From assembly GCA_963761305.1 (NCBI GenBank), contig CAVXGK010000002.1:2656001-2720000 (forward strand): a stretch of DNA of 64,000 bases. The letters run 5' to 3'. The notes beneath the pieces are model-generated. The model had not been told where the DNA came from. It saw only the letters and a program-made list of their open reading frames with translations, and ran no database searches. Position 1 is the first letter of the stretch, and the number at the start of each line of letters is the position of its first letter. Positions 50,101 through 64,000 of the stretch are shown piece after piece. The stretch comes from an uncultured Gemmatimonadaceae bacterium. Lineage in GTDB: Bacteria; Gemmatimonadota; Gemmatimonadetes; Gemmatimonadales; Gemmatimonadaceae. Both the position numbers and the translations under genes were made by a program.

Positions 50101-50229
50101 GGTCGAGGCCCGGCCGTCGACCTCGGCCACGACGACCGCGATCGGCCCGTGTCCCTTCCGGCCAGCCTCGGCCACCGCCGCCCTCGCGGCAGCGTCGAGC
50201 TCGTTTGCGTCCAAAAAGAGGTGCGACAT
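47161..50229 (-). CDS. Degenerate GGDEF + STAND-like AAA ATPase + TPR protein
   Basis: N-terminal GGDEF-like fold (SLRGGDLVGRVGG...LSVGAA), FAGRGQEF, GAAGTGTAT, LVLDEMQWAD, TEGNPLFI, FTHD, multiple TPR-like repeats. Confidence 0.8.
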   Translation of the reverse strand: MSHLFLDANELDAAARAAVAEAGRKGHGPIAVVVAEVDGRASTPPGTADWQPAEEAEYADVLNTAVAKMIGASLRGGDLVGRVGGRVVMVLANTTADDGRAVGDRLCAAIRVHRFANGFGARTLSVGAAAAPDHGQSYEAVLDAAVDALARIQAQGRDGAAAMPLAHHDALRRPLSIDRFAGRGQEFASLTQWLDEANGGQPRVVSVSGAAGTGTATLLQQLESEARLRGGLFAVVASPKRQLPKPYGVWRALLRATHVFQPSPEREWAELQHLEPALGESLAVPRTGSQFRLLGELTDYVRSLASGRPLVLVLDEMQWADSTSWDALEHLIGQLDRDRIMICMTYRTDGPNDAGWMRRVTSRPELTRQITIANLTRDEVKQWLEAAFHRQQVGRELLAFIYRHTEGNPLFIGHLLRALVEDGSIWHNGTRWEWTPVSELRISAGRTALIAHRLERFSASTHAVLWTAAVVGREFDVHLLVGAGAGSELAVRLALSEAASAGLLRPTRERKRGSFAFTHDDVAEVLIDGLPKQQQRQLHLRVAQALEKLRPDSADDIALHYDAAGESADAYRWGQLAAKAAERVHAFGAASAYLQLAARNATSPGELAEIRVALAHVSETGGRFDEVEELCDLAIEWFDGQGDERRSLTLRRLRERARMELGQPALVTLEALKVLEAEAKRLGFDHESVAVLLMMSQTYGRLGDRRTSERIAAEGVAMAEQVGDTLLLADAVTRLGGAMFSEAPNRAYSILERALSLYESVGDARGQARTYSNMGIMAQFESRLDAAFEAYTRGMTVGRAGGMPDMWGLAALNLGVLSQRCGDYDRARDLFGEALGLFVAVKHSEYQLAALFNMAHVEREVGRWESATQLYETTISLAQRIGQADIEAGAMAGAGLCALELGHADAALAAIQSLESRTKDRTDWYLGREVVEALQIRTDAGDGERRQHAVQRLARSVELAESTDVYCAAWLISACAETVGRIDRPRVTELVRAYAVRVKKLGYPEMTRRFDALESSRERPQP

Positions 50230-50410: not shown

Positions 50411-52300
50411 ATGCGCCAACTCGCTTTCCTGACGTCCGCGCTCGTCTCCGCCGCGTGCAGCGCCCAGGCCCCGCGCCCGCAGGCGACGCCCGTCGCGCCG
50501 GCGTCGCAAACGCCGCTTCAGCCGTCGGCTTCTGCCGCCGCCCCGGTGATGCCCGGCGAGCTGCTGCCCGACGAACAAGTTCAGCAAGTTCTCAATCGCC
50601 TCACGTTCGGCGCCCGCCCCGGCGACGCCGAGAAGGTCCGCGCGATGGGCATCGACAAGTGGATCGATCTCCAGCTGAATCCGGATCGCATTTCGGATCC
50701 CGCGGGCGACGACATCATCAAGAACTACTCCGTCTTCTCGACGCCCACCGGCGACATCGTGGGGCAGTTCGAGGAGTTGCAGCGTTTGCAGCGGCAGGCC
50801 AAGCGCAACGCGAGCGACACGACGATGTCGAAGCCGGAAGAGCGGCAGGAAGTCCTTGCTCGGAATCCGCAGCTCGCGCAGGCCGCGCAGCGCAATCAGC
50901 AGATGGTCGGCCAGGTCCAATCGGCGCAGCTCGCCCGCGCGGTGACGAGCGAGCGGCAGCTCAACGAAGTGATGGTCGACTTCTGGGAAAACCATTTCAG
51001 CGTGTTCGCTGGCAAGGGGCAGACGCGTTTGTATCTCGCGCAGTACGATCGCGACGTGATCCGTCCGCACGCGATGGGAAAATTCCGCGATCTGCTCGGC
51101 GCGGTGGCGCACAGCCCGGCGATGCTCTTCTTCCTCGACAACTGGGAAAGCGCCGCCGACAGCGTTCATCCCACGCTCGCGCAGGCGCGCCGGCCGGCGT
51201 TTCGCCGCGGGGCGTTCGGCACGCTCATCCCGATTCGGCCCGGACCGCAACAGCAGCAGCGCGCCAAGCGCGGCTTGAACGAGAACTACGCGCGTGAGCT
51301 CATGGAGCTGCACACGCTCGGCGTCGACGGCGGCTACTCACAGAAGGACGTACAGGAAGTCGCGCGGGCGCTCACGGGATGGACGTTCAACCGCCAGAAT
51401 GGCGAGTTCGTCTTCAACCCGAACATTCACGACGCCGGCGAGAAGCTGATTCTCGGCCAGCGCTTCCCCGCCGGCCACGGCGAGGACGAAGGCGAGCGCG
51501 TGCTGGACATGGTGGCGCGCCATCCTTCCACGGCCCATTTCATCGTCACCAAGCTCGCGCGTCACTTCGTGAGCGACGATCCGCCGAAACCCCTCGTCGA
51601 CCGCTGCGCGAGTACGTTCACCAAGACTGACGGCGACATCCGCGAGACGCTGCGCTGCGTCGTCACGAGCCCCGAGTTCTTCAGCCGCGCGGCCTATCGC
51701 GCCAAGGTGAAGACGCCGTTCGAGGTCGTGGCCAGCGCGCTGCGCGCGGTCAATGCGAGTCCGGATGCATCGCCTCGCTCGGCGCAGATCGTCGCGCGGC
51801 TCGGCCAGCCGATCTTCGGCCGGCAGACGCCGGACGGTTGGCCCGATCGCGGCGACGCGTGGATGAACACCGGGGCGATCCTCAACCGTATCAACTTCGG
51901 TCTGAGTCTCGCGGCGGGTCAGGTTCCGGGTGCGCAGCTCGCGAACTGGACTGACTTCTCGACGCTTCGTAGCGAGCCGCGCACGCAGCAGGTGGATGCG
52001 GTCGTGAAGTCGATGTTGGGCGGACAGGTGTCGCCCGAGACGCGTCAGGTGCTGATGAGCGGTGAGAATCCGATGCTCGCGGCCAACGACGCGAACGGCA
52101 TGGTCGACAGCTCGTCCATGGATCCAGGCGGCGGACGCCGTGGCGGCCGCGGCGCTCAGCAGCAGCAGAAACCGGACGGCAAGGGATTCCCGCGCGGACC
52201 GGCGGCGCAGATCCCGGGCTTTGGACGGCCGGTGAACCTTCAGGGACTTCCGCAGGTAGTGGGTCTGGCGCTGGGCGCTCCCGAATTTCAACGACGGTGA
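50411..52300 (+). CDS. DUF1800 family lipoprotein
   Basis: SAAC lipobox; LNRLTFG, QLNEVMVDFWENHF, SPAMLFFLDN, NENYARELMELHTLG, HDAGEK, KVKTPFE, PEFQRR. Confidence 0.9.
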   Translation: MRQLAFLTSALVSAACSAQAPRPQATPVAPASQTPLQPSASAAAPVMPGELLPDEQVQQVLNRLTFGARPGDAEKVRAMGIDKWIDLQLNPDRISDPAGDDIIKNYSVFSTPTGDIVGQFEELQRLQRQAKRNASDTTMSKPEERQEVLARNPQLAQAAQRNQQMVGQVQSAQLARAVTSERQLNEVMVDFWENHFSVFAGKGQTRLYLAQYDRDVIRPHAMGKFRDLLGAVAHSPAMLFFLDNWESAADSVHPTLAQARRPAFRRGAFGTLIPIRPGPQQQQRAKRGLNENYARELMELHTLGVDGGYSQKDVQEVARALTGWTFNRQNGEFVFNPNIHDAGEKLILGQRFPAGHGEDEGERVLDMVARHPSTAHFIVTKLARHFVSDDPPKPLVDRCASTFTKTDGDIRETLRCVVTSPEFFSRAAYRAKVKTPFEVVASALRAVNASPDASPRSAQIVARLGQPIFGRQTPDGWPDRGDAWMNTGAILNRINFGLSLAAGQVPGAQLANWTDFSTLRSEPRTQQVDAVVKSMLGGQVSPETRQVLMSGENPMLAANDANGMVDSSSMDPGGGRRGGRGAQQQQKPDGKGFPRGPAAQIPGFGRPVNLQGLPQVVGLALGAPEFQRR

Positions 52301-52333
52301 GCCCGGCCGTAAATAGGACAAAGGGATAGCGAT

Positions 52334-53641
52334 ATGAATCGTCGAGTATTCATGAAGTCGGGCGCGATGGCGCTGGCCACGATGGGGCTCAACCCCACCT
52401 TCCTCCGCCGCACTGTGTTCGCGCAGGATCTGCTCAAAGGAGCGGCGCTCAAGGGGAACGGACGCGGCAAGGTGCTCGTCGTCCTCTTCCAGCGCGGCGC
52501 GGCCGACGCCCTGAACGTCGTCGTGCCGCACGGTGAGCGGAACTACTACGCGATGCGTCCGTCGATCGCGATTCCGCGGCCGGTCTCCGGCACGGCGAAC
52601 ACGGCGATCGATCTCGACGGATTCTTCGGGCTTCACCCGTCGCTCTCGCCGTTCAAGAAGCTGTGGGACGACGGGATCCTCGCGCCGGTTCACGCCGTCG
52701 GATCGCCGAGCAATTCGCGGTCGCACTTCGACGCGCAGGACTACATGGAAAGCGGCACGCCCGACAACAAGGGCACGCGCGACGGTTGGTTGAATCGCTA
52801 TCTCGCCGTGAAGGGCACCTGCGACGAATGCAAGTTGCACGACGCGAGCGGTGCGACGGCGACCGGCGCGAAGGCGGCGCCGTTCCAAGCCGTGTCGATG
52901 ACGCCGCAGACGCCGCGCATTCTCGAGGGCGACTCGCCGACGGTGGCGATGAACAGCATCGACGAGTTCACCATCCGAACCAACGGTACGCAAGCGGAAC
53001 GCATCGAGGCGCTCTATCGCACGGGCAACGCCGACGTCGTGCACGCCGCCGGCGGCGAGATGTTCGAGGCGATGAAGATCCTCAAGGCGGCGAACCCGCA
53101 GCAATACACCCCGGAGAATGCCGCCGACTACCCGCGGACACCGTTCGGCCAGCATCTGAAGCAGATCGCGCAGCTCATCAAGGCGGACGTGGGTCTCGAG
53201 ATCGCGTTCGCCGACGTCGGCGGCTGGGACACGCACGTGAATCAGGGCGGCGCGACTGGTCAGCTCGCGCAGCGCCTCGACGATTTCTCCAAGTCGATCG
53301 GGGCGATGGTGCAGGACCTCGGCAACCGCGTGGCCGACGTCACGATCCTCACGATGTCCGAGTTTGGCCGTACGGCGCGCCAGAACGGCAACGGTGGCAC
53401 CGACCACGGCCACGCGACGTCGATGTTCGTGATCGGCGGCGACGTGAAGGGCAAGAAGGTCCACGGCAAGTGGCCGGGCCTCGAACCCGAGCAGTTGAAC
53501 GAAGGCCGCGACCTCGCGCTGACGACCGACTTCCGGTCAGTCTTCTCGGAAGTGGCGTTCAAGCATCTCGGCGCCGCCAAGATGGACGCCGTGTTCCCGG
53601 GTTTCCACGGCGACGAGTCGAAGTGGGTCGGCGTGCTCTAG
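52334..53641 (+). CDS. DUF1501 family protein, Tat-exported
   Basis: MNRRVFMK twin-arginine signal; FQRGAADALN, RSHFDAQ, GWLNR, GGWDTH, SEFGRT, GTDHG, TTDFR. Confidence 0.9.
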   Translation: MNRRVFMKSGAMALATMGLNPTFLRRTVFAQDLLKGAALKGNGRGKVLVVLFQRGAADALNVVVPHGERNYYAMRPSIAIPRPVSGTANTAIDLDGFFGLHPSLSPFKKLWDDGILAPVHAVGSPSNSRSHFDAQDYMESGTPDNKGTRDGWLNRYLAVKGTCDECKLHDASGATATGAKAAPFQAVSMTPQTPRILEGDSPTVAMNSIDEFTIRTNGTQAERIEALYRTGNADVVHAAGGEMFEAMKILKAANPQQYTPENAADYPRTPFGQHLKQIAQLIKADVGLEIAFADVGGWDTHVNQGGATGQLAQRLDDFSKSIGAMVQDLGNRVADVTILTMSEFGRTARQNGNGGTDHGHATSMFVIGGDVKGKKVHGKWPGLEPEQLNEGRDLALTTDFRSVFSEVAFKHLGAAKMDAVFPGFHGDESKWVGVL

Positions 53642-53710: not shown

Positions 53711-56380
53711 TCAGCTCTGCGGCTTCCACCCGGTGAATACGTTCATCCAGCTGCGCACAACGCGTGGCAAAAAGCGCTGTGGCCGCACGCGATCGATCAT
53801 CGCGTAGAACGAGATGCGATCCACGAGGAGCTCACAGAGCGCGGCCCTGAATCCGGCGTCCCACTCCTCTTGGTAGAGGTCGACGCTGCCGGCCGACGCG
53901 AGCAGCGATCGGTAGCGCTCCACCCACGACGCGATCGTTTCGCCGGACGCGTTCGGCGGCAGCACGAACACGAGGAACTCGGCGAGGTCGCGCTGCGGCG
54001 CGCCGATCGTCGCCAGCTCCCAATCGAACGCGCACAGATGGAGTCCGGTCGCGCCACGCCGAAGCGCCACGTTGCGCGGATTGAAATCGTTGTGAAGCAG
54101 CGTGCGCGGCGACGCGTCGAGCACGTTCGCCCACGAGGCGATGTCGCTCACCAATCGCGCGTGGATGCGTCGGAGCGCCGGATCGCGGAATGCCGTCGAC
54201 CGCTCGTGGGCGTGCTCGGCCAGCGCGCGCCAGAGAGGCGCCATCGCGACGTACTTCACCGAATCGCGGCGCGGCGGCAGCCACGATGTGGTCGCCAGCG
54301 ATTCGTCGCCGAGTCCGACCGCGTGAATGTCTGCCAGGCCGGTGAGCGCCGCGTCGATCGCGGCGGCGTTCCAGCGCGCCGGATCGTTGGCGTTGATCAG
54401 CACGGCGTCGTCGATCCGCTCGAGGGCAATCAGCCATCGACGTCGGGCGTCGTCGCGCTCGATGAGTATCGGACGCGGCGTGTGCGAACGAAGGCGCGGA
54501 TCGCGAAGCGCGTAGACCGCCAGCTCGCGCACCTGCGAGCGCGTGATGCCGAGGTCGTCTCTGAATTTCGTGACGGACTCGCCCAATGCAGGCGAGACGA
54601 GGCCCGCGAGCGCTACCGCCACGTCGACCGAGTGCGTGTCGGCCGCCTTGGATTTCACGAACAGGCGCGCATCGCGACTCGCACCATGCTCGTCATGGAC
54701 GGAGACCACGGCGTCGAACAAGCCGGCCTGCGTTCCCTCCCCCGCCCGCCACGCCGTCAACTCGGCGACGATGCTCTCGTCGCTGGCGATCGGCGTCAAG
54801 TCCACTCGGTCGAGGTACAGCGGACCGGCACCGAGCCAATCACTCAGCCCGGCGGCCAGCGCATCGCTCGGCTCGAGGAGCGGACGTCGTTCCTTTCGAG
54901 CGGGACAAGCCACCGCGGCGCCAATATCCGGCACGATGCCCTGACGAACGAAATCGTCGAAGTACCGTGATAGAAGGTGCGAGTCTACGTCGCCGACGCG
55001 CACGCCGAGCGCGTCGAGCGCACGCAGTGACACGGCGCCGTTCACGCTCGACCGCCGCGACTCTTCGAGCAGCTCGGGCAGCGTGAGCGCGTTCTCCGCC
55101 GCAATGCGTCGGAGAAAGAACGATCGCAGCGGGAACAACGGATTGTTCGCGTCGGCCGTCGCTTTCAGCCGCTCCGCCCACTCGGCGTACGGCAGTAATG
55201 CGACGTCGTAGCCGCGCAGGCGCATCCAGAGCGCGCACTCGCGCCAGTGCCGCGGCCGCGCGGCGATCACGTGATGAACGCTCGAGCCCACGTCGTGCGC
55301 GAGTGCAAGCCGCACGATCGCCCGCGCCGCGTCGTCCACCGGCACGCAGTCCATTCGCCAATCGAGATCGGGAGCGGCGCGCATGCCAATGCATCCGGCG
55401 ATGAACCGCGACGTGAGGTCGTCCACGTTCGACCGTCCGCGCGCGTCGCCACTGATGAGCGACGGCCGCACGATCGTCACCGGAAGCCCGCGCGCGCCAG
55501 CTTCGCGCACCAGCGCTTCGGCCACGCATTTACTCTGGGCGTAACCGAGCCACAGTCCGTGTACGCTGTCGAAGACGTCGGTGCGCTCGTCGACGCTCCG
55601 CCGGTTCGACGTGGAGTGGCAGACGCTGGTGCTCGACACGAAGTGCAGCGGCTTGGGCGTGCCCACGCACGCGAGCCGCAGCAACTCGCGCGTGCCGAGC
55701 ACGTTCGCGTCGCGCAGGCGTTCGTACGAGTGCACCCAATTGACGTCGGCCGCCGCATGGTAGATGGCTTCGATCTCGGCGGCCAACGCCGAAAACGCGC
55801 CCGCGTCGCGACCCAAGCGCGGCCGGGAAAGATCGCCGTCCACGACGCGAATGCGGTCCACGTCCGCGTCGTGCCAGAGCCCGTACGCGGTCAGGTTGCG
55901 ACGCACGCGCGCGAATCCATCGCCGCGCCCCGCTCGAACCAGACAATGCACCGTTGCCGTCGTTTCGTCGAGCAACGTGCGCAAGAGATACGCGCCGAGG
56001 AAACCCGTCGCCCCGGTGAGCAGCACGCGGCGTGCGGCGCGAGTGGGGGGCGCGATGCCGCGAGGCGCGATCTCGGGCGGCAGCGCGGCATCGACGCGCA
56101 TCTGTCTGATTTGTCGCTCGCGAGCACCGTCGGTGTTTCCGTCCTCGATGAAGCGGCACAGCGAATCGATATCCGGATGTTCGTGCACGGCGGTGAGCGG
56201 CAGCTCGATTCCCAGGTCGTCCTCGATCGCCGCGGTGAGCTCGACCGCGGCCAACGAATCCATTCCGAGCGAGGCGAACGTGTCGAACGGTCCGACGCGG
56301 GCGACACTCACGCGGAGTGTCGCGCCGACGACCGCCGCCAGGCGATCGCGAAGCCCCTCGCGAGTCGCGACGCTCGTCAC
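53711..56380 (-). CDS. Fusion of acyl carrier protein, thioester reductase (extended SDR) and APH/choline-kinase-like phosphotransferase
   Basis: FASLGMDSLAAVEL (phosphopantetheine Ser); LLTGATGFLG, YHAAA, GYAQSK, RPSLISG; C-terminal LLHNDFNPRN...FDWE. Confidence 0.88.
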   Translation of the reverse strand: MTSVATREGLRDRLAAVVGATLRVSVARVGPFDTFASLGMDSLAAVELTAAIEDDLGIELPLTAVHEHPDIDSLCRFIEDGNTDGARERQIRQMRVDAALPPEIAPRGIAPPTRAARRVLLTGATGFLGAYLLRTLLDETTATVHCLVRAGRGDGFARVRRNLTAYGLWHDADVDRIRVVDGDLSRPRLGRDAGAFSALAAEIEAIYHAAADVNWVHSYERLRDANVLGTRELLRLACVGTPKPLHFVSSTSVCHSTSNRRSVDERTDVFDSVHGLWLGYAQSKCVAEALVREAGARGLPVTIVRPSLISGDARGRSNVDDLTSRFIAGCIGMRAAPDLDWRMDCVPVDDAARAIVRLALAHDVGSSVHHVIAARPRHWRECALWMRLRGYDVALLPYAEWAERLKATADANNPLFPLRSFFLRRIAAENALTLPELLEESRRSSVNGAVSLRALDALGVRVGDVDSHLLSRYFDDFVRQGIVPDIGAAVACPARKERRPLLEPSDALAAGLSDWLGAGPLYLDRVDLTPIASDESIVAELTAWRAGEGTQAGLFDAVVSVHDEHGASRDARLFVKSKAADTHSVDVAVALAGLVSPALGESVTKFRDDLGITRSQVRELAVYALRDPRLRSHTPRPILIERDDARRRWLIALERIDDAVLINANDPARWNAAAIDAALTGLADIHAVGLGDESLATTSWLPPRRDSVKYVAMAPLWRALAEHAHERSTAFRDPALRRIHARLVSDIASWANVLDASPRTLLHNDFNPRNVALRRGATGLHLCAFDWELATIGAPQRDLAEFLVFVLPPNASGETIASWVERYRSLLASAGSVDLYQEEWDAGFRAALCELLVDRISFYAMIDRVRPQRFLPRVVRSWMNVFTGWKPQS

Positions 56381-58170
56381 GTGCCGGTGCCGAGTGCGAC
56401 GGCGAATTCGGGATCCGCCACCCAGCGCGCCACTTCGTCGAGCGAGCGGTCACCGAATGCGTCGCGACACGCACGGCGGCGCAGCTTCCCGCTCGACGTC
56501 TTCGGCATCGTGCCGTGACGGAGCACGCTCACGGCCGAGAGCACGATGCCGTGGTGATCGACGACCGCCTCGCGCACACGTTGGATCAGTTCAGCCAGGA
56601 ACGCGTCGCAGATGGCGGTATCGTCGAGCTCCGGTGCGTGCCGGCGGTCGACTTCCACGGCAAGGGCCACTGCTTCGCCGCCTTCGCCGTCGATCGAAAA
56701 CGCAGCCGAGCATCCGGGCCTGATCGCCGCGTGCTGTCGCTCGGCGGTGCGCTCGACGTCCTGCGGGTAGTGCTTGAAGCCGCGCACGATGAGCACGTCT
56801 TTCAAGCGCCCCGCGATGAACAGCTCTCCGTCGTGCAGCGCGCCCAAGTCGCCCGTACGCAGGAACGGACCTTCACCGCCGGCGAGGCGCGCCTGGAACG
56901 TCTCTCGCGTCTCGTCGTCACGACGCCAGTAGCCGCGCGCCACGCTCGGCGACTCGACCCAGATCTCTCCGATGCGCCCGTCGGCGCATCGGAGACGCGT
57001 GTGCGGATCGACGATCAGCGCTCGTGTCCCGAACGACACCGGACCGCTCGACACGAGCGGACGCGTGCCCGAGTTCGACGCGCGCGCGATGCGGAGCCGG
57101 CCGCGCGTCAGGGCATCGGTGGAGACGTCGTGAATCACTGGCTCGTAGTGGCGCCCGCCGGTGGAGACGAGCAGCGTGGACTCGGCGAGGCCGTACACGG
57201 GATAGAACGAGCGCCATTCGAAGCCAACGCCTTGGAATCGCGCGTGAAACGCTTCGAGCGTCTCGGCGCGGATCGGTTCGGCGCCGTTGTACGCGGTGCG
57301 CCACGAGCTGAGATCCAGCGCGTCGCGTTGCGCGTCGGTGACTTTGCGAACGCAGAGATCGTAGGCGAAGTTCGGCCCGCCGCTCGTCGAAGCGCGATAA
57401 CGCGTGATCGCGCGCAGCCACCGAATCGGCCGGTGGAGGAACGACGCCGGCGCCATGAGAAATGCCGGATAGCCGCCGAAGATCGGACCGAGCACGCCCT
57501 CGATGAGTCCCATGTCATGAATCACCGGGAGCCACGACACGGATCGCGTCGAGCGGTCGCGGTCCGCGGCGCTGCTGGCGTAGGCGAGGTTGTGGAGCAG
57601 GTTCGCGTGCGACACCATGACGCCGCGCGGCGACGCCGTCGAGCCGGACGTGTACTGAAGAAACGCGAGATCGTGCGTGTCGATCGGCACGTCGTGCCAC
57701 TCGCCCGTGTCATGCTCGAACAGCGTGTCGGTGGCGAGCCACGGAATCGAGGCGAGCGCCGGCGCGTCGATCGACATGCGCGTCGCGGCGTCGGCGACGC
57801 TCGCGTTGGCGAGAACGATCGCGACGTCGGCGTCGGCGACGATGCTCAGCAAGCGCGGCAGCGTGCGCGACGCCTGTGACGGTTGCGGCGGATACGCCGG
57901 CACGGCGATCACGCCCGCGTACAGGCAGCCGAAGAACGCGGGGATGAAGTCGAGCCCGGGCGGATACAGCAGCAGGGCTCGATCGCCCGGGCTGACGCCG
58001 CGCTCGCGCAGCGCGCGGGCCACGCTTCGTGCGCGCTCGTCCAACTCGGCGTACGTGAGACGCGGACCTTCGCGCTCGCCGTCGATGAGGAACGTGAAAG
58101 CGGTGTCGCCTCCCTGCTCCGCCGCGCGGGATGCGAGCAGATCGACGAGCGTCGAATGCGGCGCGCTCAT
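56377..58170 (-). CDS. Fatty acyl-AMP ligase (FAAL)
   Basis: FLQYTSGSTASPRGV, WLPVIHDMGLI, GGPNFAY, YGLAESTL followed by a FAAL-type insertion, LRTGDLG, PKTSSGKLRR. Confidence 0.92.
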   Translation of the reverse strand: MSAPHSTLVDLLASRAAEQGGDTAFTFLIDGEREGPRLTYAELDERARSVARALRERGVSPGDRALLLYPPGLDFIPAFFGCLYAGVIAVPAYPPQPSQASRTLPRLLSIVADADVAIVLANASVADAATRMSIDAPALASIPWLATDTLFEHDTGEWHDVPIDTHDLAFLQYTSGSTASPRGVMVSHANLLHNLAYASSAADRDRSTRSVSWLPVIHDMGLIEGVLGPIFGGYPAFLMAPASFLHRPIRWLRAITRYRASTSGGPNFAYDLCVRKVTDAQRDALDLSSWRTAYNGAEPIRAETLEAFHARFQGVGFEWRSFYPVYGLAESTLLVSTGGRHYEPVIHDVSTDALTRGRLRIARASNSGTRPLVSSGPVSFGTRALIVDPHTRLRCADGRIGEIWVESPSVARGYWRRDDETRETFQARLAGGEGPFLRTGDLGALHDGELFIAGRLKDVLIVRGFKHYPQDVERTAERQHAAIRPGCSAAFSIDGEGGEAVALAVEVDRRHAPELDDTAICDAFLAELIQRVREAVVDHHGIVLSAVSVLRHGTMPKTSSGKLRRRACRDAFGDRSLDEVARWVADPEFAVALGTGT

Positions 58171-58961
58171 ACGAGCACCTCGACGGGAGCGGACGAAGGG
58201 AGCACGTCGATGGTGAGCGAGTCCGGCAGTCGGCCGGTGGATCGCATCGACTCGTGGACGCGAACGAACAGGTCGTGCACGGCGTCGCGGTTGCGTTCCA
58301 GGTCGGCGACGACCCAGTAGCTCGTATCGATCGGCGGGAGAAAGTAGACGTCGATCATACCAGGTTTGGCGTCGTATCCCATACCGGGGTTCATCTCGTT
58401 CGGGATCGCGAAGTAGATGGGCACGATCCGCGCGTGGAGACTCGTGGCGAGATGGAACGAGCCTTTGTTGAAGTGCCCGATCTCGCCGGTGGTGATGCGC
58501 ATGCCCTCGGGACTCAGATACACCGAGTCACCCGTCTCGCGAAGAATGCGGTCGGCGCGCTTGAAGATCTCGACACGCTTCGTCGGATATTCCTGCGGCA
58601 CGGTCCAGAAGATCCGGATGAGCGTGCCGATGATTCCCGTCGGCGGCATCCACTTGAGGAAGCCGCTGAGGAAGAACCGCGTGCGCGGCAGTCCCAGCGC
58701 GATCAGGACGAAGAGATCGAGCGTCGACGTGTGGTTCGAGACGTAGATCGTCTGGATGTTCGCGGGCTGCGGGGCGCCGTGCACGCGATAGCGCACGCCC
58801 CAGATGCGAAGCGCGGCTTCGCCCAACCAGCGCGCCATGACCTCGGAGTAGAATCGGCGCGCCAGAGAACACGTCGGGATCGCGACGATCAGCATGGCGA
58901 TCGCGCCGAACGTGAGGAAGATGAACGTCGCCGCGAGACGAACACGCATGCCGGAGCTCAT
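58167..58961 (-). CDS. PlsC-like lysophospholipid acyltransferase
   Basis: NHTSTLD (HxxxxD), SPEGMR, FNKGSF, IVPI; N-terminal membrane anchor. Confidence 0.9.
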   Translation of the reverse strand: MSSGMRVRLAATFIFLTFGAIAMLIVAIPTCSLARRFYSEVMARWLGEAALRIWGVRYRVHGAPQPANIQTIYVSNHTSTLDLFVLIALGLPRTRFFLSGFLKWMPPTGIIGTLIRIFWTVPQEYPTKRVEIFKRADRILRETGDSVYLSPEGMRITTGEIGHFNKGSFHLATSLHARIVPIYFAIPNEMNPGMGYDAKPGMIDVYFLPPIDTSYWVVADLERNRDAVHDLFVRVHESMRSTGRLPDSLTIDVLPSSAPVEVLV

Positions 58962-59944
58962 ACGCGTCTCCGGCAGATCACGGTCTGCATCGCGAAGTTG
59001 AGCTGCTTCTCGAACGCCAGCACGGGCGAGAACAGGATCTGGCCCAGGAAGTACGGGTAGATCGCGCGCGAGAGGTTGAGCCCTTTGCCGCGGAGCAGCT
59101 TGAAAGCCGCGCCGGCAAAGATGTAGAAAAAGGCCGGGAACGCGCCGTACGGCAGATAATCCACCACCTCGAGGCCCGCCTTGTCCATCGCCAACAGGAA
59201 TGTCGTGCGGTCGTAGAGTACCGTGTGCTGCGGCGCCTGTAGTCCGGGCCACCGATCGCCGTAAAGGCGGAACGTGGTGCTATCGAGCCTCGGCACCTCA
59301 ATGATCAGGCGGCCGTCGGGCTTCAACAGACGGCGCGCCGTGGCCAGCGTGCGCATCGGATCGTAATCGTGCTCGAGGAAGTGCCACATCGTCACGAGGT
59401 CGAAGGGCTTCTCGCCGAACTCCTGCTCGTAGAAGAGTCCACAACGAAAATCGACGCCGTCGAGCGACGGGCTCGCGCTCAGATCCTTGAAGTCCACCCC
59501 GGTCGCGCGCGCGCCGTAGCGCGAGCGCATCTTCTGGAGGAACGTGCCGACCGCGCAGCCGACGTCGAGGACGTCGCTGTGCGAGTCGAGCGCGACGTAC
59601 CGGCTGACGATCTTGTCCTTCTGCCGGTCGTGCCGGTCCATCGCCCAATTGAAGAAACCGGTGAGCACGCCCCAATCCTTCTTCTTGCGGTGCGCGATGT
59701 ACTCGTCGTCGTAGTATGACTTGATGTGCTCGACGGTGAGCCGCGGGTTCTGGTAGCGCAGGCCGCAGCGCGCGCACGTGACGAAGGTGAATCGTCCCGG
59801 TTTGCCGCTGAGATCGTCTTGGGCGGTGATGAAGGGTGAGGACTCGGAGCCGCCGCACAGATAACAGCACACGGTCTCGAACTGGCTGGCGACGGGCGCC
59901 TCGAGCGCGCGCGACGTGTCGGGCGGAATGGCAATCGCGGTCAT
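58958..59944 (-). CDS. Class I SAM-dependent methyltransferase with N-terminal Zn-ribbon
   Basis: CYLC...CARC...QNPR; VLDVGCAVG; FDLVTMWHFLEH; LKPDG..IIEVP. Confidence 0.9.
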   Translation of the reverse strand: MTAIAIPPDTSRALEAPVASQFETVCCYLCGGSESSPFITAQDDLSGKPGRFTFVTCARCGLRYQNPRLTVEHIKSYYDDEYIAHRKKKDWGVLTGFFNWAMDRHDRQKDKIVSRYVALDSHSDVLDVGCAVGTFLQKMRSRYGARATGVDFKDLSASPSLDGVDFRCGLFYEQEFGEKPFDLVTMWHFLEHDYDPMRTLATARRLLKPDGRLIIEVPRLDSTTFRLYGDRWPGLQAPQHTVLYDRTTFLLAMDKAGLEVVDYLPYGAFPAFFYIFAGAAFKLLRGKGLNLSRAIYPYFLGQILFSPVLAFEKQLNFAMQTVICRRRV

Positions 59945-60603
59945 GGGAGCTTCCCTCCGAGAAGGGTTGCGGTAGCGATGAGCATGGACACGAGCGCGCA
60001 TTCCGAGATCGCGATCCGGCGCGCGACCAGAGACGCACGGAGCGAAGGATCGTCGACGACCTCGTAGACGCAGAGAACGAGGTACAGCGCCGCGAGCGCG
60101 GCGAGCGGCGGCGCCGCCGGCGATACGGCGAAGGCCAGCGCCGGGTACTTGAGCAGCACGATGTGGCCATTGATCACGCCGCGTGTGACGACGGGTCGAA
60201 GCCGGTACCACGCGCCGAGAACGGCGACGGCCCCACCGACCACCCCGAGCCGTGCCGCGGCGCGCGGTCCAAGCGCGATGAGCGCCAACCCTGCCACGGC
60301 GAGGGCGATCGCCACCGCAATCAGCGGCGCGATCGACTCCGCGACGACCGTAACCCGGTTCGGATGCTCGCGCGCATCTCTCGAGCGATCCTCGATGTCG
60401 TCCCAGACGCGGAACGCGAGCATCAAAACGAGTCCCGTCACGGTCGCGCGCGCGAACTCGCTCACCGAGCGGCCGCCGTTCCACCCGTTCACCTGTCCAC
60501 CCGTCCACCCGTCCACCGCCGCCACAACCAGCGCCAGCGGCACGAACACGCGCAGCCGCGCGCGCTCGGCGAGGTATCGTACGATCAGCTCACGCGACGA
60601 CAT
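59941..60603 (-). CDS. UbiA-superfamily (prenyltransferase-like) membrane protein, short form
   Basis: Aspartate-rich RVWDDIEDRSRDAREHPNR motif, LLKYP, YEVVDD; several TM helices. Confidence 0.72.
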   Translation of the reverse strand: MSSRELIVRYLAERARLRVFVPLALVVAAVDGWTGGQVNGWNGGRSVSEFARATVTGLVLMLAFRVWDDIEDRSRDAREHPNRVTVVAESIAPLIAVAIALAVAGLALIALGPRAAARLGVVGGAVAVLGAWYRLRPVVTRGVINGHIVLLKYPALAFAVSPAAPPLAALAALYLVLCVYEVVDDPSLRASLVARRIAISECALVSMLIATATLLGGKLP

Positions 60604-63232
60604 GCACCTCTCCGCGATCGCCGTCCACCGTGACCGTCGTGCCGGATGGAATGCGCACCATGGCGTTCTTCACGCCCACCACGCACGGAATGCCGAACTC
60701 CCGGGCGATGATCGCGCCGTGCGACAACATCCCACCGCGCTCGATGACCAGTCCGGAAATGAGGAAGAACGCCGGCCCCCATCCGGGATCCGTCTGCTTG
60801 GTGACGAGCACGTCACCGCGCGCGAGGAGCGCCGTCTGCGTCACACTGTCGAGCACCGTCGCACGTCCGGTGACACGTCCGCCGCACGCGCTCGTCCCCG
60901 TCAACACACCGCTCGAAGTCGCCGCCGCCGATGTTTGCCAGTCCACCGGTCCATCGGTCCGCCGGTCCGCCGGCATTTCCAAGTACTCGCCTTCAGGCAG
61001 CGTGAACGAATCGGGCGGATTCGTCGCCGAGAGTCGCGCGTGATCGGTCTTGCGCGTAGCGATCAACGTGCGAGTCGCGCCGGGGAACATCGCGCTGCCG
61101 CCAGTCAGCTCGAGCAGCTCCTGCCACGTCAGGAAGAACACGTCGTCACGCTCGGCGATCGTTCCGCGGCGCGTCAGCTCGGTGCCGATCGCAAGAGCGA
61201 TTCGCCGGCACCGGCTGTAGAGCAGCGCCTGTTTGAGCCGCGCGCGTTCGCGATATCGAATCGCGGCGTGCACGCGCGGCACGAGAAGCTCGAGCAGCAT
61301 GGCGCGGGCCGTCGTGAGACGCTCGCCGACGCGCCCCGTCTCCTCCTCTCGCGCAGCAGCCTGCGCACGCAACGCATCGCGCGGCGAGTCTGCGTCGAGC
61401 CTGGCATAGGCGCGGAGCACGTCGATCAGCGGCGCCGGATCCTCCTGGAAGCTCGGCGTCGTGAGCATCAGCTCTTCGGAGCACCGAAAGCCCCAATCAT
61501 CCAGGTACCGCTGAAACGCCACGCGGAACTCGGCGTAGAGCGCGTCGACGCGAATTGCGTTCAACACCGCGTTCGGGTCCGCGTTCTCGAACAACGCGTT
61601 CAACGCGCCGTCGCGACGCACCAGTCGAGAGAGATCCCACAGTCGCAGCACCGGCTCACCGCTCACCACGTTCGGAATCGCCTTGAGCAGCGACGTGTGC
61701 GTCGCTTCGCCGAGTCCGGCGCCGCGCAGCAGGCGCTCGAGCGCGCCATAGCTGATCATCGCCGCGCCGTCGGCGAGTGAGGCATCGAGCCATTTGTGGC
61801 ACCGAATGTCGATGAAGCCGGCCAGCGTGTCGCGTAGCTCGGCAAGCGACATCGTGTCCAGAAGTGAGGGTTGTGTGCGCGCCGCGAACTCGTCCACCGA
61901 GCGCTCGAACCGCGCCACGCGACGCTCGAGCTGGACGAGAAGCGCCGTCGCTTTCGCCAGGATCACGGACACTTCGGCGATCTGCCGGACCTTGCTGCGG
62001 CGAGCAACCGGATTCGGCTCGACCTCGTTACCGTCGGCGCCGACGAACGTGTCGAAGCTCCGCGTCAGCGCGCTGCCGAAAGGTGCGAGGCGAAGCACCG
62101 AATGAATCGCCGAGAGATTGTAGTATATCCGGGCGCCGTGCACGCCGATGATGCGCTGGAACTCTGACTCCATCGCGCGCACTCGGGCGGCCGAGACGCC
62201 GCAGGCGACGGCGAGGTTGCGGAAGTAGTGCGTGTATCCCGCCGCGGCGATCGAGTACAGCAGCGGCGAAATCGGCCGCGGAAAATTCTCGTTGACGTTC
62301 GCGTTCGACCACGTGATGAGTCGTCGCGGTGACGCGACGCTCGCCGGCGGCATCGACACCGGCGCGGTGATCGGCCGCGACTGCACGACGTAGAGCGCGC
62401 CGCTCTGATCGATCGCCCATTCGACGTCCTGCGGCGCGCCGAACTCCCCTTCGAGTGCAAGGCCGGCGGCTCTGAGCTGCTCGGTCTCGCGATCACTCAG
62501 CGAACACGCAACGTGTCGATCGAGATGACGAGCCGTGCCACTCCGGCGATCGAGCGCCAGGCGGCCGGGATCCACAGCGCCGGCGACGAGCTTGTCGGCG
62601 AGACCCGGTCCGTACTCGACGAGGATCTCCCCGCTCGACGTCGTCGTGAACGACACGCCTGCTGCCCGCGCGTCGACCTGCCGCTGAATCACCACGCCCA
62701 TGCCACGCATCGGCGCGCCGCGCGCCCTCCTATAGAAGGCCGCGCGCTCCGACCACAGCGAGGCCCACACGTCGCGCACGGCTTGCTCGAGCATCGCCTG
62801 GTCGGTCACGTGCAGAATCGAGTCGAGTTGGCCGGCAAACGACTCGGCCGCTCCATCTTCCCCCACCGCCGAGCTTCGCACGACCACGGGGCCACGGGCG
62901 AGGAACGGCGCCGCATAGATCGCCAGCTGTTCTCGCAGCGTTCGGGGCAAGGCCGCGGTTCGCACGAACGACGGCCAGTCGGATGTGACGGCGCCGGCCG
63001 ACGCAACGTGAGCGTCGAGCGCGTGCACGGTGAGCACGAAGCCCTCCGGCACCGGCAATCCCGCACGCAGCATTCGGCCGAGTGCGTACGCTTTGCCACC
63101 GACGAGACTCGGATCGGCCGCCGCTACGAGCGGAGCGCAGAAAATGTTCGTGGACTCGGCCAACACGGTCGCCGGATCAGCGACGATCGGCGATGCGTCC
63201 GGCGGAGTGAGCGAGACTTCGACGGTCGTCAT
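60590..63232 (-). CDS. PEP-utilising/dikinase family phosphotransferase (rifampin phosphotransferase / PigC-like architecture)
   Basis: N-terminal ATP-grasp (VGGKA, VRSSAVGED, SFAGQ, QDVEWA, VQSRPIT), large central domain, C-terminal phospho-His swivel domain GGMLSHGAIIAREFGIP. Confidence 0.92.
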   Translation of the reverse strand: MTTVEVSLTPPDASPIVADPATVLAESTNIFCAPLVAAADPSLVGGKAYALGRMLRAGLPVPEGFVLTVHALDAHVASAGAVTSDWPSFVRTAALPRTLREQLAIYAAPFLARGPVVVRSSAVGEDGAAESFAGQLDSILHVTDQAMLEQAVRDVWASLWSERAAFYRRARGAPMRGMGVVIQRQVDARAAGVSFTTTSSGEILVEYGPGLADKLVAGAVDPGRLALDRRSGTARHLDRHVACSLSDRETEQLRAAGLALEGEFGAPQDVEWAIDQSGALYVVQSRPITAPVSMPPASVASPRRLITWSNANVNENFPRPISPLLYSIAAAGYTHYFRNLAVACGVSAARVRAMESEFQRIIGVHGARIYYNLSAIHSVLRLAPFGSALTRSFDTFVGADGNEVEPNPVARRSKVRQIAEVSVILAKATALLVQLERRVARFERSVDEFAARTQPSLLDTMSLAELRDTLAGFIDIRCHKWLDASLADGAAMISYGALERLLRGAGLGEATHTSLLKAIPNVVSGEPVLRLWDLSRLVRRDGALNALFENADPNAVLNAIRVDALYAEFRVAFQRYLDDWGFRCSEELMLTTPSFQEDPAPLIDVLRAYARLDADSPRDALRAQAAAREEETGRVGERLTTARAMLLELLVPRVHAAIRYRERARLKQALLYSRCRRIALAIGTELTRRGTIAERDDVFFLTWQELLELTGGSAMFPGATRTLIATRKTDHARLSATNPPDSFTLPEGEYLEMPADRRTDGPVDWQTSAAATSSGVLTGTSACGGRVTGRATVLDSVTQTALLARGDVLVTKQTDPGWGPAFFLISGLVIERGGMLSHGAIIAREFGIPCVVGVKNAMVRIPSGTTVTVDGDRGEVHVVA

Positions 63233-63813
63233 GCCGGTCGCGCCTTCACGCCGATCCGGTACAGCAGCACGCTGAACGCCAAGTGAATTCCCGGTCCGAT
63301 CACCAGCACGTACAGCCACAGCATCCATGGCGTCGGCACGACCAGTGACATCGCGATGAGCATTCCGAGGATGGAATCGACGCGATCGACGATGAACGTC
63401 ACCGCCGCGCCTACGCGGCCTGGCGCCGCCATCCCGGGCGCGACGTCGAACTGCCGTTTGACGAACGAATTCGGCAACTCACCGAGCATGAACCCAAGCC
63501 CGGCGACCGCGCCGAGGATCGCGTAGCCCGATGCGTCGAGTCGCCAGAGCTCACCGGCGATCGATGGCGAAACGCGTGAGACGATCGCGTGAAGCGCCGC
63601 GAACGCCGCCGCCGCCGCGGGAACCATCACGACAAACCCCCGCACCGTCTTGTTCTCGCCGAAAAGTCGCTTGCCGCGAACGTGCGCGCCGCCGTCGAGC
63701 GGCACGAGCAGACGTCGCGATGCCGGCATGCGAAGCCACGCGGAGTGCGCGAGCCCGGCGAGGATGAACGCGACCGTGAGAAACAGCGCGCACGCGAGCG
63801 GATCGAGAGTCAT
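63229..63813 (-). CDS. CDP-archaeol synthase (CarS)-like cytidylyltransferase
   Basis: PLDGG...GKRLFGENKTVRG, GELPNSFVKRQ and DRVDS correspond to the CarS-family motifs; multiple TM helices. Confidence 0.8.
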   Translation of the reverse strand: MTLDPLACALFLTVAFILAGLAHSAWLRMPASRRLLVPLDGGAHVRGKRLFGENKTVRGFVVMVPAAAAAFAALHAIVSRVSPSIAGELWRLDASGYAILGAVAGLGFMLGELPNSFVKRQFDVAPGMAAPGRVGAAVTFIVDRVDSILGMLIAMSLVVPTPWMLWLYVLVIGPGIHLAFSVLLYRIGVKARPA

Positions 63814-63821
63814 GTCGCGGC

Positions 63822-64000
63822 TCAGATGTCCGCGCCGGTCTCGAGGCGGTTGTGAAAGAGAAACAGCTCGCCTCGGAGCCCGCGTGCGCCCCGAATCCAC
63901 GCCCACAATCCGATCTCGTTTTCGGTTTCGTACCGCACCTCGCCGAGTCGATAGCCGGGCACGTAGGGGTACATGTGATGCAGTTCGTGCGCGTCTATGT
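63822..64000 (-). CDS. Membrane fatty-acid desaturase family protein, C-terminal fragment (5' end outside the window)
   Basis: Manual translation IDAHELHHMYPYVPGYRL...GADI* contains the third histidine box. Not in the supplied ORF track. Confidence 0.75.
   Translation of the reverse strand, partial: IDAHELHHMYPYVPGYRLGEVRYETENEIGLWAWIRGARGLRGELFLFHNRLETGADI

Follow-up and report, generated by a model that had tools for sequence, protein, structure and literature searches.

A CarS-like membrane protein of a bacterial operon with fatty-acyl partners: a candidate CDP-lipid synthase for ether-type phospholipids

The 64,000-nucleotide stretch of DNA analysed here (the window) encodes a 194-aa membrane protein that is a distant relative of archaeal CarS and is CarS-like rather than CdsA. 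Its gene is the second of a tightly coupled eight-gene operon (Table 1). We regard CTP transfer by this protein as very probable, and just as probable that it serves a dedicated, non-housekeeping pathway. In our preferred but tentative reading, the enzyme would make a CDP-lipid (with CMP from CTP) on an ether-type phosphatidic acid that the operon builds from a fatty alcohol, and a PssA-type transferase would take over this CDP-lipid.

Table 1. Genes of the operon in the window, listed from gene 1 to gene 8
Feature	Position	Strand	Remarks
Membrane fatty-acid desaturase, 3' end (operon gene 1)	63822..64000	-	PF00487 82.8 bits
CarS-fold membrane CTP-transferase, bacterial 'ELPNS' subfamily	63229..63813	-	194 aa, ATG start
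PEP-utiliser/dikinase, rifampin-phosphotransferase (RPH)/PigC architecture	60590..63232	-	880 aa; PF01326+PF00391
Short UbiA/prenyltransferase-fold membrane protein	59941..60603	-	220 aa; PF01040 19.7 bits, below cut-off
Class I SAM methyltransferase, N-terminal CxxC..CxxC	58958..59944	-	PF13489 92.8 bits
Lysophospholipid-type acyltransferase	58167..58961	-	264 aa; PF01553 57.8 bits
Fatty acyl-AMP ligase (FAAL)	56377..58170	-	597 aa; PF00501
ACP + thioester reductase + APH/choline-kinase-fold kinase	53711..56380	-	889 aa; PF00550, PF07993, PF01636/PF02958

Family, fold and active site of the CarS-like protein

The CarS-like reading frame has a GC content of 0.69/0.49/0.82 at codon positions 1/2/3. 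A longer version starting with GTG at position 63906 was rejected since it overlaps the desaturase gene and the homologues are about 194 aa long; 1185 homologues were found, and nearly all of the best 120 had a length of 170-199 aa. The CarS-type motifs named in a sequence-only reading of this DNA were present in the translation (PLDGG at residues 38-42, KRLFGENKTVRG at 48-59, SFVKRQ at 116-121 and DRVDS at 143-147), and the HMM comparison of CarS with CdsA, set beforehand, came out on the side of CarS. The protein scored 49.7 bits with PF01864 (cut-off 22) and 19 bits with PF01148 (CTP_transf_1), the latter under the cut-off of 24 and over model positions 169-260 only. Scored with an HMM built from 120 archaeal-like CarS proteins of bacteria, it reached 38.1 bits, the best of 500 shuffled sequences reaching 7.6. 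The score with the NCBIfam equivalog NF003114 was 61.2, below the cut-off of 148.

The structure model (pLDDT 84.9) showed the CarS fold of five membrane helices with cytoplasmic loops. Its top Foldseek match was CarS of the archaeon Aeropyrum pernix (5GUF, E 6.9e-4, TM 0.57/0.68), which shares its Pfam family and 22-23% identity with the protein. In the VIA comparison 5GUF gave a Z of 12.8 (rmsd 2.9 over 152 residues), followed by bacterial CdsA with a Z of 6.8 (Thermotoga maritima 4Q2E; PF01148); the CarS-like protein is much shorter than CdsA, which has about 270-310 aa. Residues equivalent to those of A. pernix CarS were numbered from HMMER alignments to 5GUF, and we take the compared residues to have catalytic, CTP-binding or metal-binding roles. 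Nine of the 13 compared residues of the active-site region were common to both proteins: the equivalents of D41, K57, T58, S104, K107, R108, D122, D125 and H157 were kept in 41/41 operon sequences (T in 39/41), and the changes were N28 to G, D100 to E, G103 to N and N161 to S/N. With Gly in place of the helix-1 Asn28 and Glu in place of Asp100, the metal site differs from that of the archaeal enzyme. Since the NCBIfam cut-off was missed, the active site is the 'ELPNS' variant and no full-length GGGP synthase was found in the source genome or in the 50 operon genomes searched, the protein is not a CDP-archaeol synthase proper.

The stand-alone archaeal-like CarS proteins of bacteria (P0121 group, 563 proteins) also belong to PF01864 and also occur in Gemmatimonadota. 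Unlike the operon proteins, they keep the helix-1 Asn and the GD-motif Asp (20/20). They formed a separate clade (support 0.95) and scored 104 with NF003114, also below 148; the one locus read (L084) contained no such operon.

Operon anatomy and relatives of the CarS-like gene

An 8-nt gap separates the desaturase gene from the CarS-like start, and the CarS-like stop overlaps the dikinase start as ATGA. The desaturase has three conserved His boxes, and its full gene, of up to 392 aa, lies mostly beyond the window (G000:C2:2719822-2721000). In the dikinase the phospho-His H838 is conserved; the best PDB matches were 5HV2 (E 1.9e-62) and 5FBS (E 3.4e-62), presumably both RPH, and the NCBIfam matches to RPH, PigC and RedH were all under cut-off. 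The methyltransferase is the most conserved gene of the operon (58-89% identity in full-length matches) and gave weak PDB matches only. The acyltransferase motifs were NHxSxxD in 54/54 and PEG followed by R/K in 49/54 sequences, and the top NCBIfam matches of the FAAL were FAAL models, under cut-off. The ACP-reductase-kinase, the last operon gene in the source genome, scored 298.6 with TIGR01746 (cut-off 213) and conserves HxDxxxxN and DWE; its kinase domain had no PDB match below E 0.09.

The UbiA-fold protein has an intact DDxxDxxxD motif and a second motif shrunk to YExxxD, and R65, D68, D69, D76, R83 and E181 were invariant in 33/33 sequences. A PDB sequence search with its alignment gave weak matches only. 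Its model (pLDDT 90) combined the prenyltransferase fold with the Asp-rich motif, as in DGGGP synthase, and soluble prenyltransferases were tied with DGGGP synthase in the VIA comparison (Z of 13.7 for 8J8J, 13.5 for MoeN5, 13.1 for UbiA 4OD4 and 12.7 for DGGGPS 6M31). The fatty-acid context proposed from the sequence was borne out by the FAAL, ACP, thioester reductase, desaturase and acyltransferase genes. The accompanying statement that the operon has no GGPP or GGGP synthase held, whereas the UbiA-fold gene two genes downstream had been overlooked; given its intact motif, the operon cannot be called devoid of prenyltransferase-type chemistry.

The operon recurs in at least six phyla, and 35/79 related loci have a PssA-type transferase as a ninth gene, which scored 85-89 bits with archaetidylserine synthase models, far under their cut-off of 240, and 68-84 bits with PssA models. 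In loci with room for them, the dikinase gene was present in 79/79, the UbiA-fold gene in 71/71 and the acyltransferase gene in 68/68; the first two are adjacent in the source genome and in L149, L153, L160 and L193. Three loci of Pirellulales keep the first six genes with no FAAL or reductase beside them. Polyangium fumosum DSM 14668 and P. jinanense SDU13 are cultured carriers. A PF01864 search of the phylum matched 76/301, mostly over part of the model (positions ~43-140), and these partial matches were taken, without singly checking them, to be CdsA cross-matches. Three were fetched: G129 contained the operon, in G219 an insertion sequence interrupts the copy, and G276 has a stand-alone archaeal-like gene. 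A dikinase search of three CarS-only genomes found none in G970, a weak match in G877 and two moderate matches in G851. The plasmid search gave no match with the CarS-like query and two partial bacterial matches with P0121.

Relatives of the protein were found in a single chain with PssA (P0400), with a reductase (P0372) and with a PlsC-like acyltransferase (6/17 long representatives scanned), and one further protein joined CarS, acyltransferase and dikinase. The gene order dgkA-CarS-pssA-psd was seen in L153 and L164, CarS-psd adjacency in L185, and DgkA (PF01219) adjoining the gene in L153, L160 and L164. A membrane protein with no HMM match, which we take to be of the phytol/DGK1 type, lies beside the gene in L118, L148 and L150 and is fused to it in P0316, P0322 and P0340. 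Among outer-subfamily metagenome loci a CDP-alcohol transferase gene lay within 1.5 kb in 15/69, or 11/30 of those with room on both sides. A three-gene unit of reductase-kinase, CarS and CDP-alcohol transferase was whole in L127 and cut at the 5' end in L087, L105 and L117; the transferase of these units is PgsA/ClsA-like and not of PssA type, no dikinase, UbiA or acyltransferase gene was nearby, and they fall outside the operon clade. At 18 outer-subfamily loci the gene adjoins an Lrp-type regulator, at 12 of them also keto-acid dehydrogenase genes (labels from translations), and no operon-type genes were detected at the 18. The fusions of relatives with PssA, acyltransferase, dikinase or reductase domains, and the position of others between DgkA and PssA/Psd, make a CDP-lipid for a dedicated pathway likely.

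A candidate pathway and its alternatives

In the order that we propose, FAAL would load a fatty acid onto the ACP, the reductase would free it as fatty alcohol, and the kinase fused to the reductase would give alkyl phosphate. The RPH-type dikinase may then convert this to the diphosphate, and the UbiA-fold protein may move the chain, probably allylic through the desaturase, onto a glycerophosphate acceptor as an ether; these two steps are the least secure of the series. The acyltransferase would fill the other glycerophosphate position, the CarS-like enzyme would form the CDP-lipid and PssA would add serine. As the source operon lacks the ninth gene, the last step would fall there to the housekeeping psd-pssA pair of the genome. 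The methyltransferase has no place in this order. The conserved lyso-lipid acyltransferase and the six CarS-acyltransferase fusions point to a two-chain glycerophosphate substrate over a mono-alkyl phosphate. The repeated adjacency of the dikinase and UbiA-fold genes speaks for the ether step, and the CdsA found in the source genome and in all 50 operon genomes searched, together with the lack of a full-length GGGP synthase match there, for a separate pathway.

Several observations run against the ether reading. The UbiA-fold protein is short, scores under the Pfam cut-off and fits soluble prenyltransferases equally well. UbiA chemistry requires an allylic donor, which here depends on the putative regiochemistry of the desaturase. 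RPH-type enzymes mono-phosphorylate an OH group and are not known to make diphosphates. The L127-type unit favours alkyl phosphate, and the six-gene Pirellulales loci, the Lrp-adjacent loci and the altered metal site also weigh on this side.

Closest to the sequence-only reading is a Kennedy-like route, in which alkyl phosphate from the reductase-kinase would become CDP-alkanol through the CarS-like enzyme and a CDP-alcohol transferase would move the alkyl phosphate to serine, glycerophosphate or another lipid. The self-contained unit of L127, its partial counterparts, the CarS-reductase fusion and the three unrelated kinase types adjoining the gene across loci (APH/EcKL, DgkA and the putative phytol/DGK1 type) speak for it. 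We nevertheless consider it rather unlikely: it gives no role to the invariably present dikinase, UbiA-fold and acyltransferase genes, Psd beside relatives suggests a glycerophospholipid, and the three-gene units have a different transferase and sit outside the operon clade.

It is unlikely, too, that the protein acts as a further enzyme of the CdsA kind on ordinary diacyl phosphatidic acid, in which the operon acyltransferase has placed an unusual acyl chain (desaturated or methylated), with no ether bond being made. The six PlsC-like fusions, the glycerophosphate-type motifs retained by the acyltransferase and the dgkA-CarS-pssA-psd order, which reads as a plain route from DAG to PE, fit such an enzyme. 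On the other hand, the source genome has its own CdsA elsewhere (PF01148, 189 bits), as have 50/50 operon genomes searched, and this reading would leave the genes for reductase, kinase, dikinase and UbiA-fold protein unexplained. Archaeal CarS, moreover, is reported not to complement an E. coli cdsA mutant in parts of PMC9385802, which also place CarS and CdsA in one CTP-transferase superfamily.

A CTP-dependent kinase that supplies the UbiA-fold enzyme with alkyl diphosphate made from alkyl phosphate, in the manner of plant VTE6 acting on phytyl phosphate, is very improbable. VTE5/VTE6-type kinases are in one clan with CarS and CdsA. This membership, the altered metal site and the two-step VTE5/VTE6 salvage described in parts of PMC13415981 fit a kinase, and set against it are the PssA fusion, the repeated adjacency of CDP-alcohol transferase and Psd genes, the two kinases already in the operon and a CarS as the closest structure.

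That the protein is a true CDP-archaeol synthase of a bacterium making archaeal-type isoprenoid diethers can be given hardly any credence in spite of its family and fold, the resemblance of its UbiA-fold neighbour to DGGGP synthase and the slight preference of the ninth gene for archaetidylserine synthase models, given the low equivalog score and the failure to find GGGP synthase or G1P dehydrogenase in the source genome (93% complete). The searches there returned a PcrB match below cut-off, presumably TrpA, and a weak Fe-ADH_2 match, presumably AroB; among the 50 operon genomes none had a full-length PcrB-family match, and the five weak partial matches were not inspected singly. With no full-length GGGP synthase in these genomes, DGGGP would be an unlikely substrate.

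The preferred ether-lipid reading can be set beside known systems. The archaeal pathway of DGGGPS, CarS and archaetidylserine synthase likewise has UbiA-fold and PssA-type partners; unlike it, the operon adds FAAL, ACP, thioester reductase, desaturase, acyltransferase and dikinase, and no GGGP synthase was found. ElbD of Myxococcus xanthus (elbB-E) contains adenylation, carrier, reductase and acyltransferase domains. These four functions also occur in the operon, where they likewise point to an ether lipid and a fatty alcohol; here three genes share them in another order, and the reductase carries a fused kinase. To our knowledge elb has no CarS-like, dikinase, UbiA-fold, desaturase or methyltransferase gene. 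The elb ether-lipid cluster is named in parts of bioRxiv 10.64898/2026.06.23.733905 and PMC11868695. For mycobacterial Rv2047c, beside pks12 (phosphomycoketide), parts of PMC2443190 propose that reductase and PEP-utiliser release and phosphorylate an alkyl chain; this is a single protein with a polyketide substrate, and those parts name no CarS, UbiA or PssA partners. The source genome gave no match to DUF2229 (Ger/Pls-type) and no second strong thioester-reductase match. Our literature search found no description of the operon, and CarS is not mentioned in PMC6431249.

Origin and meaning

In a FastTree tree that had 165 rows and a single CdsA fragment as its root and contained no archaeal CarS, the 41 operon sequences and 45 representatives formed a clade with support 0.999, and the whole ELPNS group had support 0.36; the direction of transfer is not readable from this tree. 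The CarS-like gene is a rare, patchy accessory gene beside a normal CdsA, and says little as yet on LUCA. For this reason, and because the tree lacks archaeal sequences and other bacterial CarS-like genes lie in non-lipid contexts, the earlier proposal that the enzyme was repurposed and bears on the lipid divide is unproven, as would be an origin from archaea.

Automatic annotation applies the name 'CDP-archaeol synthase' to a large subfamily of bacterial proteins that have an active-site signature and fatty-acyl partners of their own. A CarS match therefore does not mark a bacterium as a maker of archaeal lipids. It is conceivable, though doubtful, that bacteria of at least six phyla apply the ether-lipid logic of archaea to fatty chains: a choline-kinase-fold kinase and an RPH-type dikinase would turn a fatty alcohol into an allylic alkyl diphosphate, a minimal UbiA-fold enzyme would make the glycerol ether, and a CarS-fold enzyme with rewired metal site would complete an ether phospholipid together with PssA. 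This bacterial way of making ether bonds would differ from Elb, AGPS and Ger/Pls, and its kinases and its reductases (of thioester-reductase or HMG-CoA-reductase fold) would be interchangeable. If CarS-fold enzymes take fatty-chain substrates, the role given to CarS and CdsA in parts of PMC9385802, to 'uphold the lipid divide', would need qualifying. In Acidobacteria the role of the elb and agps products has not been conclusively shown, according to parts of PMC11868695. If the predicted lipid holds, the operon would represent a bacterial route to ether-type phospholipids not described so far, and for ether-bond formation in aerobic soil bacteria (such as Acidobacteriota and myxobacteria) it is a compact candidate that lends itself to testing and has cultured carriers.

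Family and fold of the CarS-like protein

The sequence-only reading had assigned the CarS-like gene to CarS rather than to CdsA, the ordinary bacterial phosphatidate cytidylyltransferase. The motifs that it quoted were all seen in the translation, and the assignment was borne out by both sequence and fold. The protein scored 49.7 bits against PF01864 (CarS-like, cut-off 22) but 19 bits against PF01148, under the cut-off of 24; its score against the archaeal equivalog NF003114 was 61.2, under the cut-off of 148. The sole PDB sequence match was Aeropyrum pernix CDP-archaeol synthase (ApCarS, 5GUF; E 0.005). Searches with an AlphaFold2 model built from 30 homologues (pLDDT 84.9) ranked 5GUF first in Foldseek (E 6.9e-4) and placed it on top of a wide VIA structure search (Z 12.8, rmsd 2.9, 152 residues), where CdsA 4Q2E came second (Z 6.8). 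Scored with an HMM built from 120 archaeal-like bacterial CarS proteins, the protein reached 38.1, against 7.6 for the best of 500 shuffles. It is a real CarS-fold enzyme that lies outside CarS in the strict sense.

Active-site residues and phylogeny

When 1.84 billion representatives were searched with a profile, 1576 matched at E 0.001. The alignment combined the 103 near-full-length members of the best 150 with 41 operon sequences, 20 archaeal-like bacterial homologues out of the 120 listed, and a single CdsA fragment; ApCarS numbering was read off HMMER alignments. The equivalents of D41, K57, T58, S104, K107, R108, D122, D125 and H157 are retained in the CarS-like subfamily. Three positions differ as one set: D100 is replaced by Glu (144/144 sequences), G103 by Asn (143/144) and helix-1 N28 by Gly (136/144). 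In contrast, the Asn and Asp are retained in 20/20 archaeal-like bacterial proteins. The new Asn may take the place of the lost helix-1 Asn in the metal site, given the roles assumed for these residues.

The operon-type clade (41 operon sequences and 45 representatives) was supported at 0.999; the whole ELPNS group, the bacterial CarS-like proteins with this signature, received only 0.36 in the tree, built without archaeal sequences. No operon of this type surrounds the archaeal-like CarS gene in L084, the one locus read.

The lipid operon and its relatives

Reading beyond the window edge revealed an eight-gene operon whose junctions comprise five 4-nt start/stop overlaps, one 14-nt overlap and one 8-nt gap. 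The genome (G000) is 5.2 Mb and 93% complete, and its closest named relatives are Gemmatimonadaceae (80-82%). The UbiA-fold gene had escaped the sequence-only reading; in VIA its model matched DGGGP synthase at Z 12.7, level with other UbiA and soluble prenyltransferases, and Foldseek returned nothing below E 0.001.

Features of the operon region (window positions; window = G000:C2:2656001-2720000) and of loci carrying relatives
Feature	Position	Strand	Observation
Gene 1		-	Desaturase
Gene 2	63229-63813	-	CarS-like, 194 aa
Gene 3		-	RPH/PigC-type dikinase
Gene 4		-	UbiA-fold protein; pLDDT 90 model, prenyltransferase fold
Gene 5		-	Methyltransferase
Gene 6		-	Lyso-lipid acyltransferase
Gene 7		-	FAAL
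Gene 8		-	ACP-thioester reductase-kinase
Repeat run	60470-60525		Short 8-nt repeats inside gene 4; residues 33-45 form a low-confidence Gly/Trp/Asn loop longer than in most relatives
DUF1800 + DUF1501 pair	50411-53641	+	Convergent with operon 3' end, where relatives carry a PssA-type gene
1022-aa protein	47161-50229	-	GGDEF-like, AAA ATPase, TPR
Operon copy (G219)	L086:4322-8880		CarS-like gene truncated, middle genes gone, dikinase broken by apparent insertion sequence
Archaeal-like CarS (G276)	L084:8004-8504		Second bacterial CarS group, 563 proteins
HMG-CoA-reductase-fold proteins	L149:4412-6808, L193:15800-18577, L200:5423-7410		Fused to or beside lipid-type kinases; related clusters
DUF3419 + PLP decarboxylase	L109:3413-3847		Downstream of dikinase-CarS pair; DUF3419 presumably BtaA-like (betaine lipid)

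In a pattern scan, 137 relatives came to light among 185,579 species genomes; record titles of the best 80 name Gemmatimonadota, Acidobacteriota, Myxococcota, Planctomycetota, Verrucomicrobiota and Pseudomonadota. Counted over loci with sufficient DNA or the gene seen, and with HMMs built from the same loci, the partners near the CarS-like gene were desaturase (75/77), dikinase (79/79), UbiA-fold (71/71), methyltransferase (69/69), acyltransferase (68/68), FAAL (61/66), reductase (59/63) and kinase (54/59); L029 and L063 are probably cut at the locus edge, and L004, a second copy on the L005 contig, was left out. On that contig two inverted copies lie ~12 kb apart, one rich in frameshifts, possibly a long-read assembly artefact. 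A PssA-type CDP-alcohol transferase was present in 35/79 loci; where at least 250 bp were visible past the kinase, it was present in 24/40. It is absent from the operon in G000 and its nearest relatives. In three Pirellulales loci (L054, L073, L081) the first six genes are present, FAAL and reductase-kinase are not beside them, and the opposite strand holds a second dikinase and an aminotransferase-like gene. By a broad subfamily profile the gene is rare, matching 13/251 Myxococcota-phylum genomes (including the centre genome and G946), 4/251 Acidobacteriota and 1/401 Pseudomonadota (the centre genome itself).

Among 17 long representatives, six are CarS-acyltransferase fusions, each from a separate 50% cluster, and single cases join CarS to dikinase, to reductase, and to acyltransferase and dikinase (Oligoflexus); single metagenomic fusions may be frameshift artefacts. 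Three more bear an N-terminal membrane domain without a Pfam match, which by its motifs we take to be a phytol/DGK1-type kinase, and in five no second family was found. A Myxococcota-phylum locus (L193, P0400) encodes PssA-CarS as a single chain. Its neighbours are a dikinase, a UbiA protein and a fusion of an HMG-CoA-reductase fold with a kinase, a replacement of the reductase-kinase shared with L149. The HMG-CoA-reductase-fold proteins of L149, L193 and L200 may reduce long acyl-CoA, not HMG-CoA.

Of 80 metagenome loci, 69 hold the outer subfamily. A CDP-alcohol transferase lies within 1.5 kb in 15/69 (11/30 of those with enough sequence on either side), and 5/69 have a dikinase no more than 6 kb away. 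Gene order is dgkA, CarS, pssA, psd, UbiA in L153 and L164, and dgkA, CarS, UbiA, dikinase in L160. In L189 a class III aminotransferase fusion follows CarS. Speaking against a universal link, 18 outer-subfamily loci adjoin an Lrp-type regulator, and operon-type genes were not detected there.

Substrate and pathway

A CDP-lipid is the most likely product, since the PssA, PgsA-like and Psd partners use CDP-lipids and derived products (PMC9385802). Our tentative first choice is a linear route, favoured because acyltransferase, dikinase and UbiA-fold genes are constantly present. Fatty acid would be converted to alcohol, alkyl phosphate, alkyl diphosphate and then a glycerol ether, which would be acylated to give the presumed substrate, activated with CDP and joined to serine; the methyltransferase has no assigned step. 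Direct activation of alkyl phosphate is a lesser possibility, favoured by three-gene units; L127 is one (reductase-kinase, CarS, PgsA/ClsA-like transferase).

Ordinary PA with a special chain as the substrate is a slightly smaller possibility. That the enzyme is a kinase is very doubtful. DGGGP as substrate is highly improbable, and G000 does not look archaeal-type. It encodes a full CdsA (189 bits) and, away from the operon, a psd-pssA pair. A search of 50 operon-bearing genomes, covering 50 of the 79 loci, gave a PF01148 match at E 1e-10 or better in every one. For GGGP synthase and G1P dehydrogenase the 93% complete genome of G000 gave weak PcrB and Fe-ADH_2 matches only, which by their motifs we take to be TrpA and AroB, and its two UbiA matches are presumably CyoE and MqnP. 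No full-length PcrB match occurred in the 50 genomes; of five weak partial ones, one passed the cut-off, only together with neighbouring segments.

DGGGP is preferred by CarS and PA by CdsA (PMC9385802, PMC4244643), CarS is lacking in Cloacimonetes (PMC7852524), Rv2047c is proposed to be a reductase and PEP-utiliser that releases and phosphorylates an alkyl chain (PMC2443190), and VTE5/VTE6 are described (PMC13415981). The elb, agps and ger genes are treated in PMC11868695 and bioRxiv 10.64898/2026.06.23.733905; term searches found neither CarS nor UbiA in the latter and no CarS in PMC6431249. No description of the operon or subfamily was found in the full-text literature searched, which lay largely outside subscription journals and supplements. 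The CarS-like gene belongs to a conserved bacterial lipid operon that is apparently uncharacterised.
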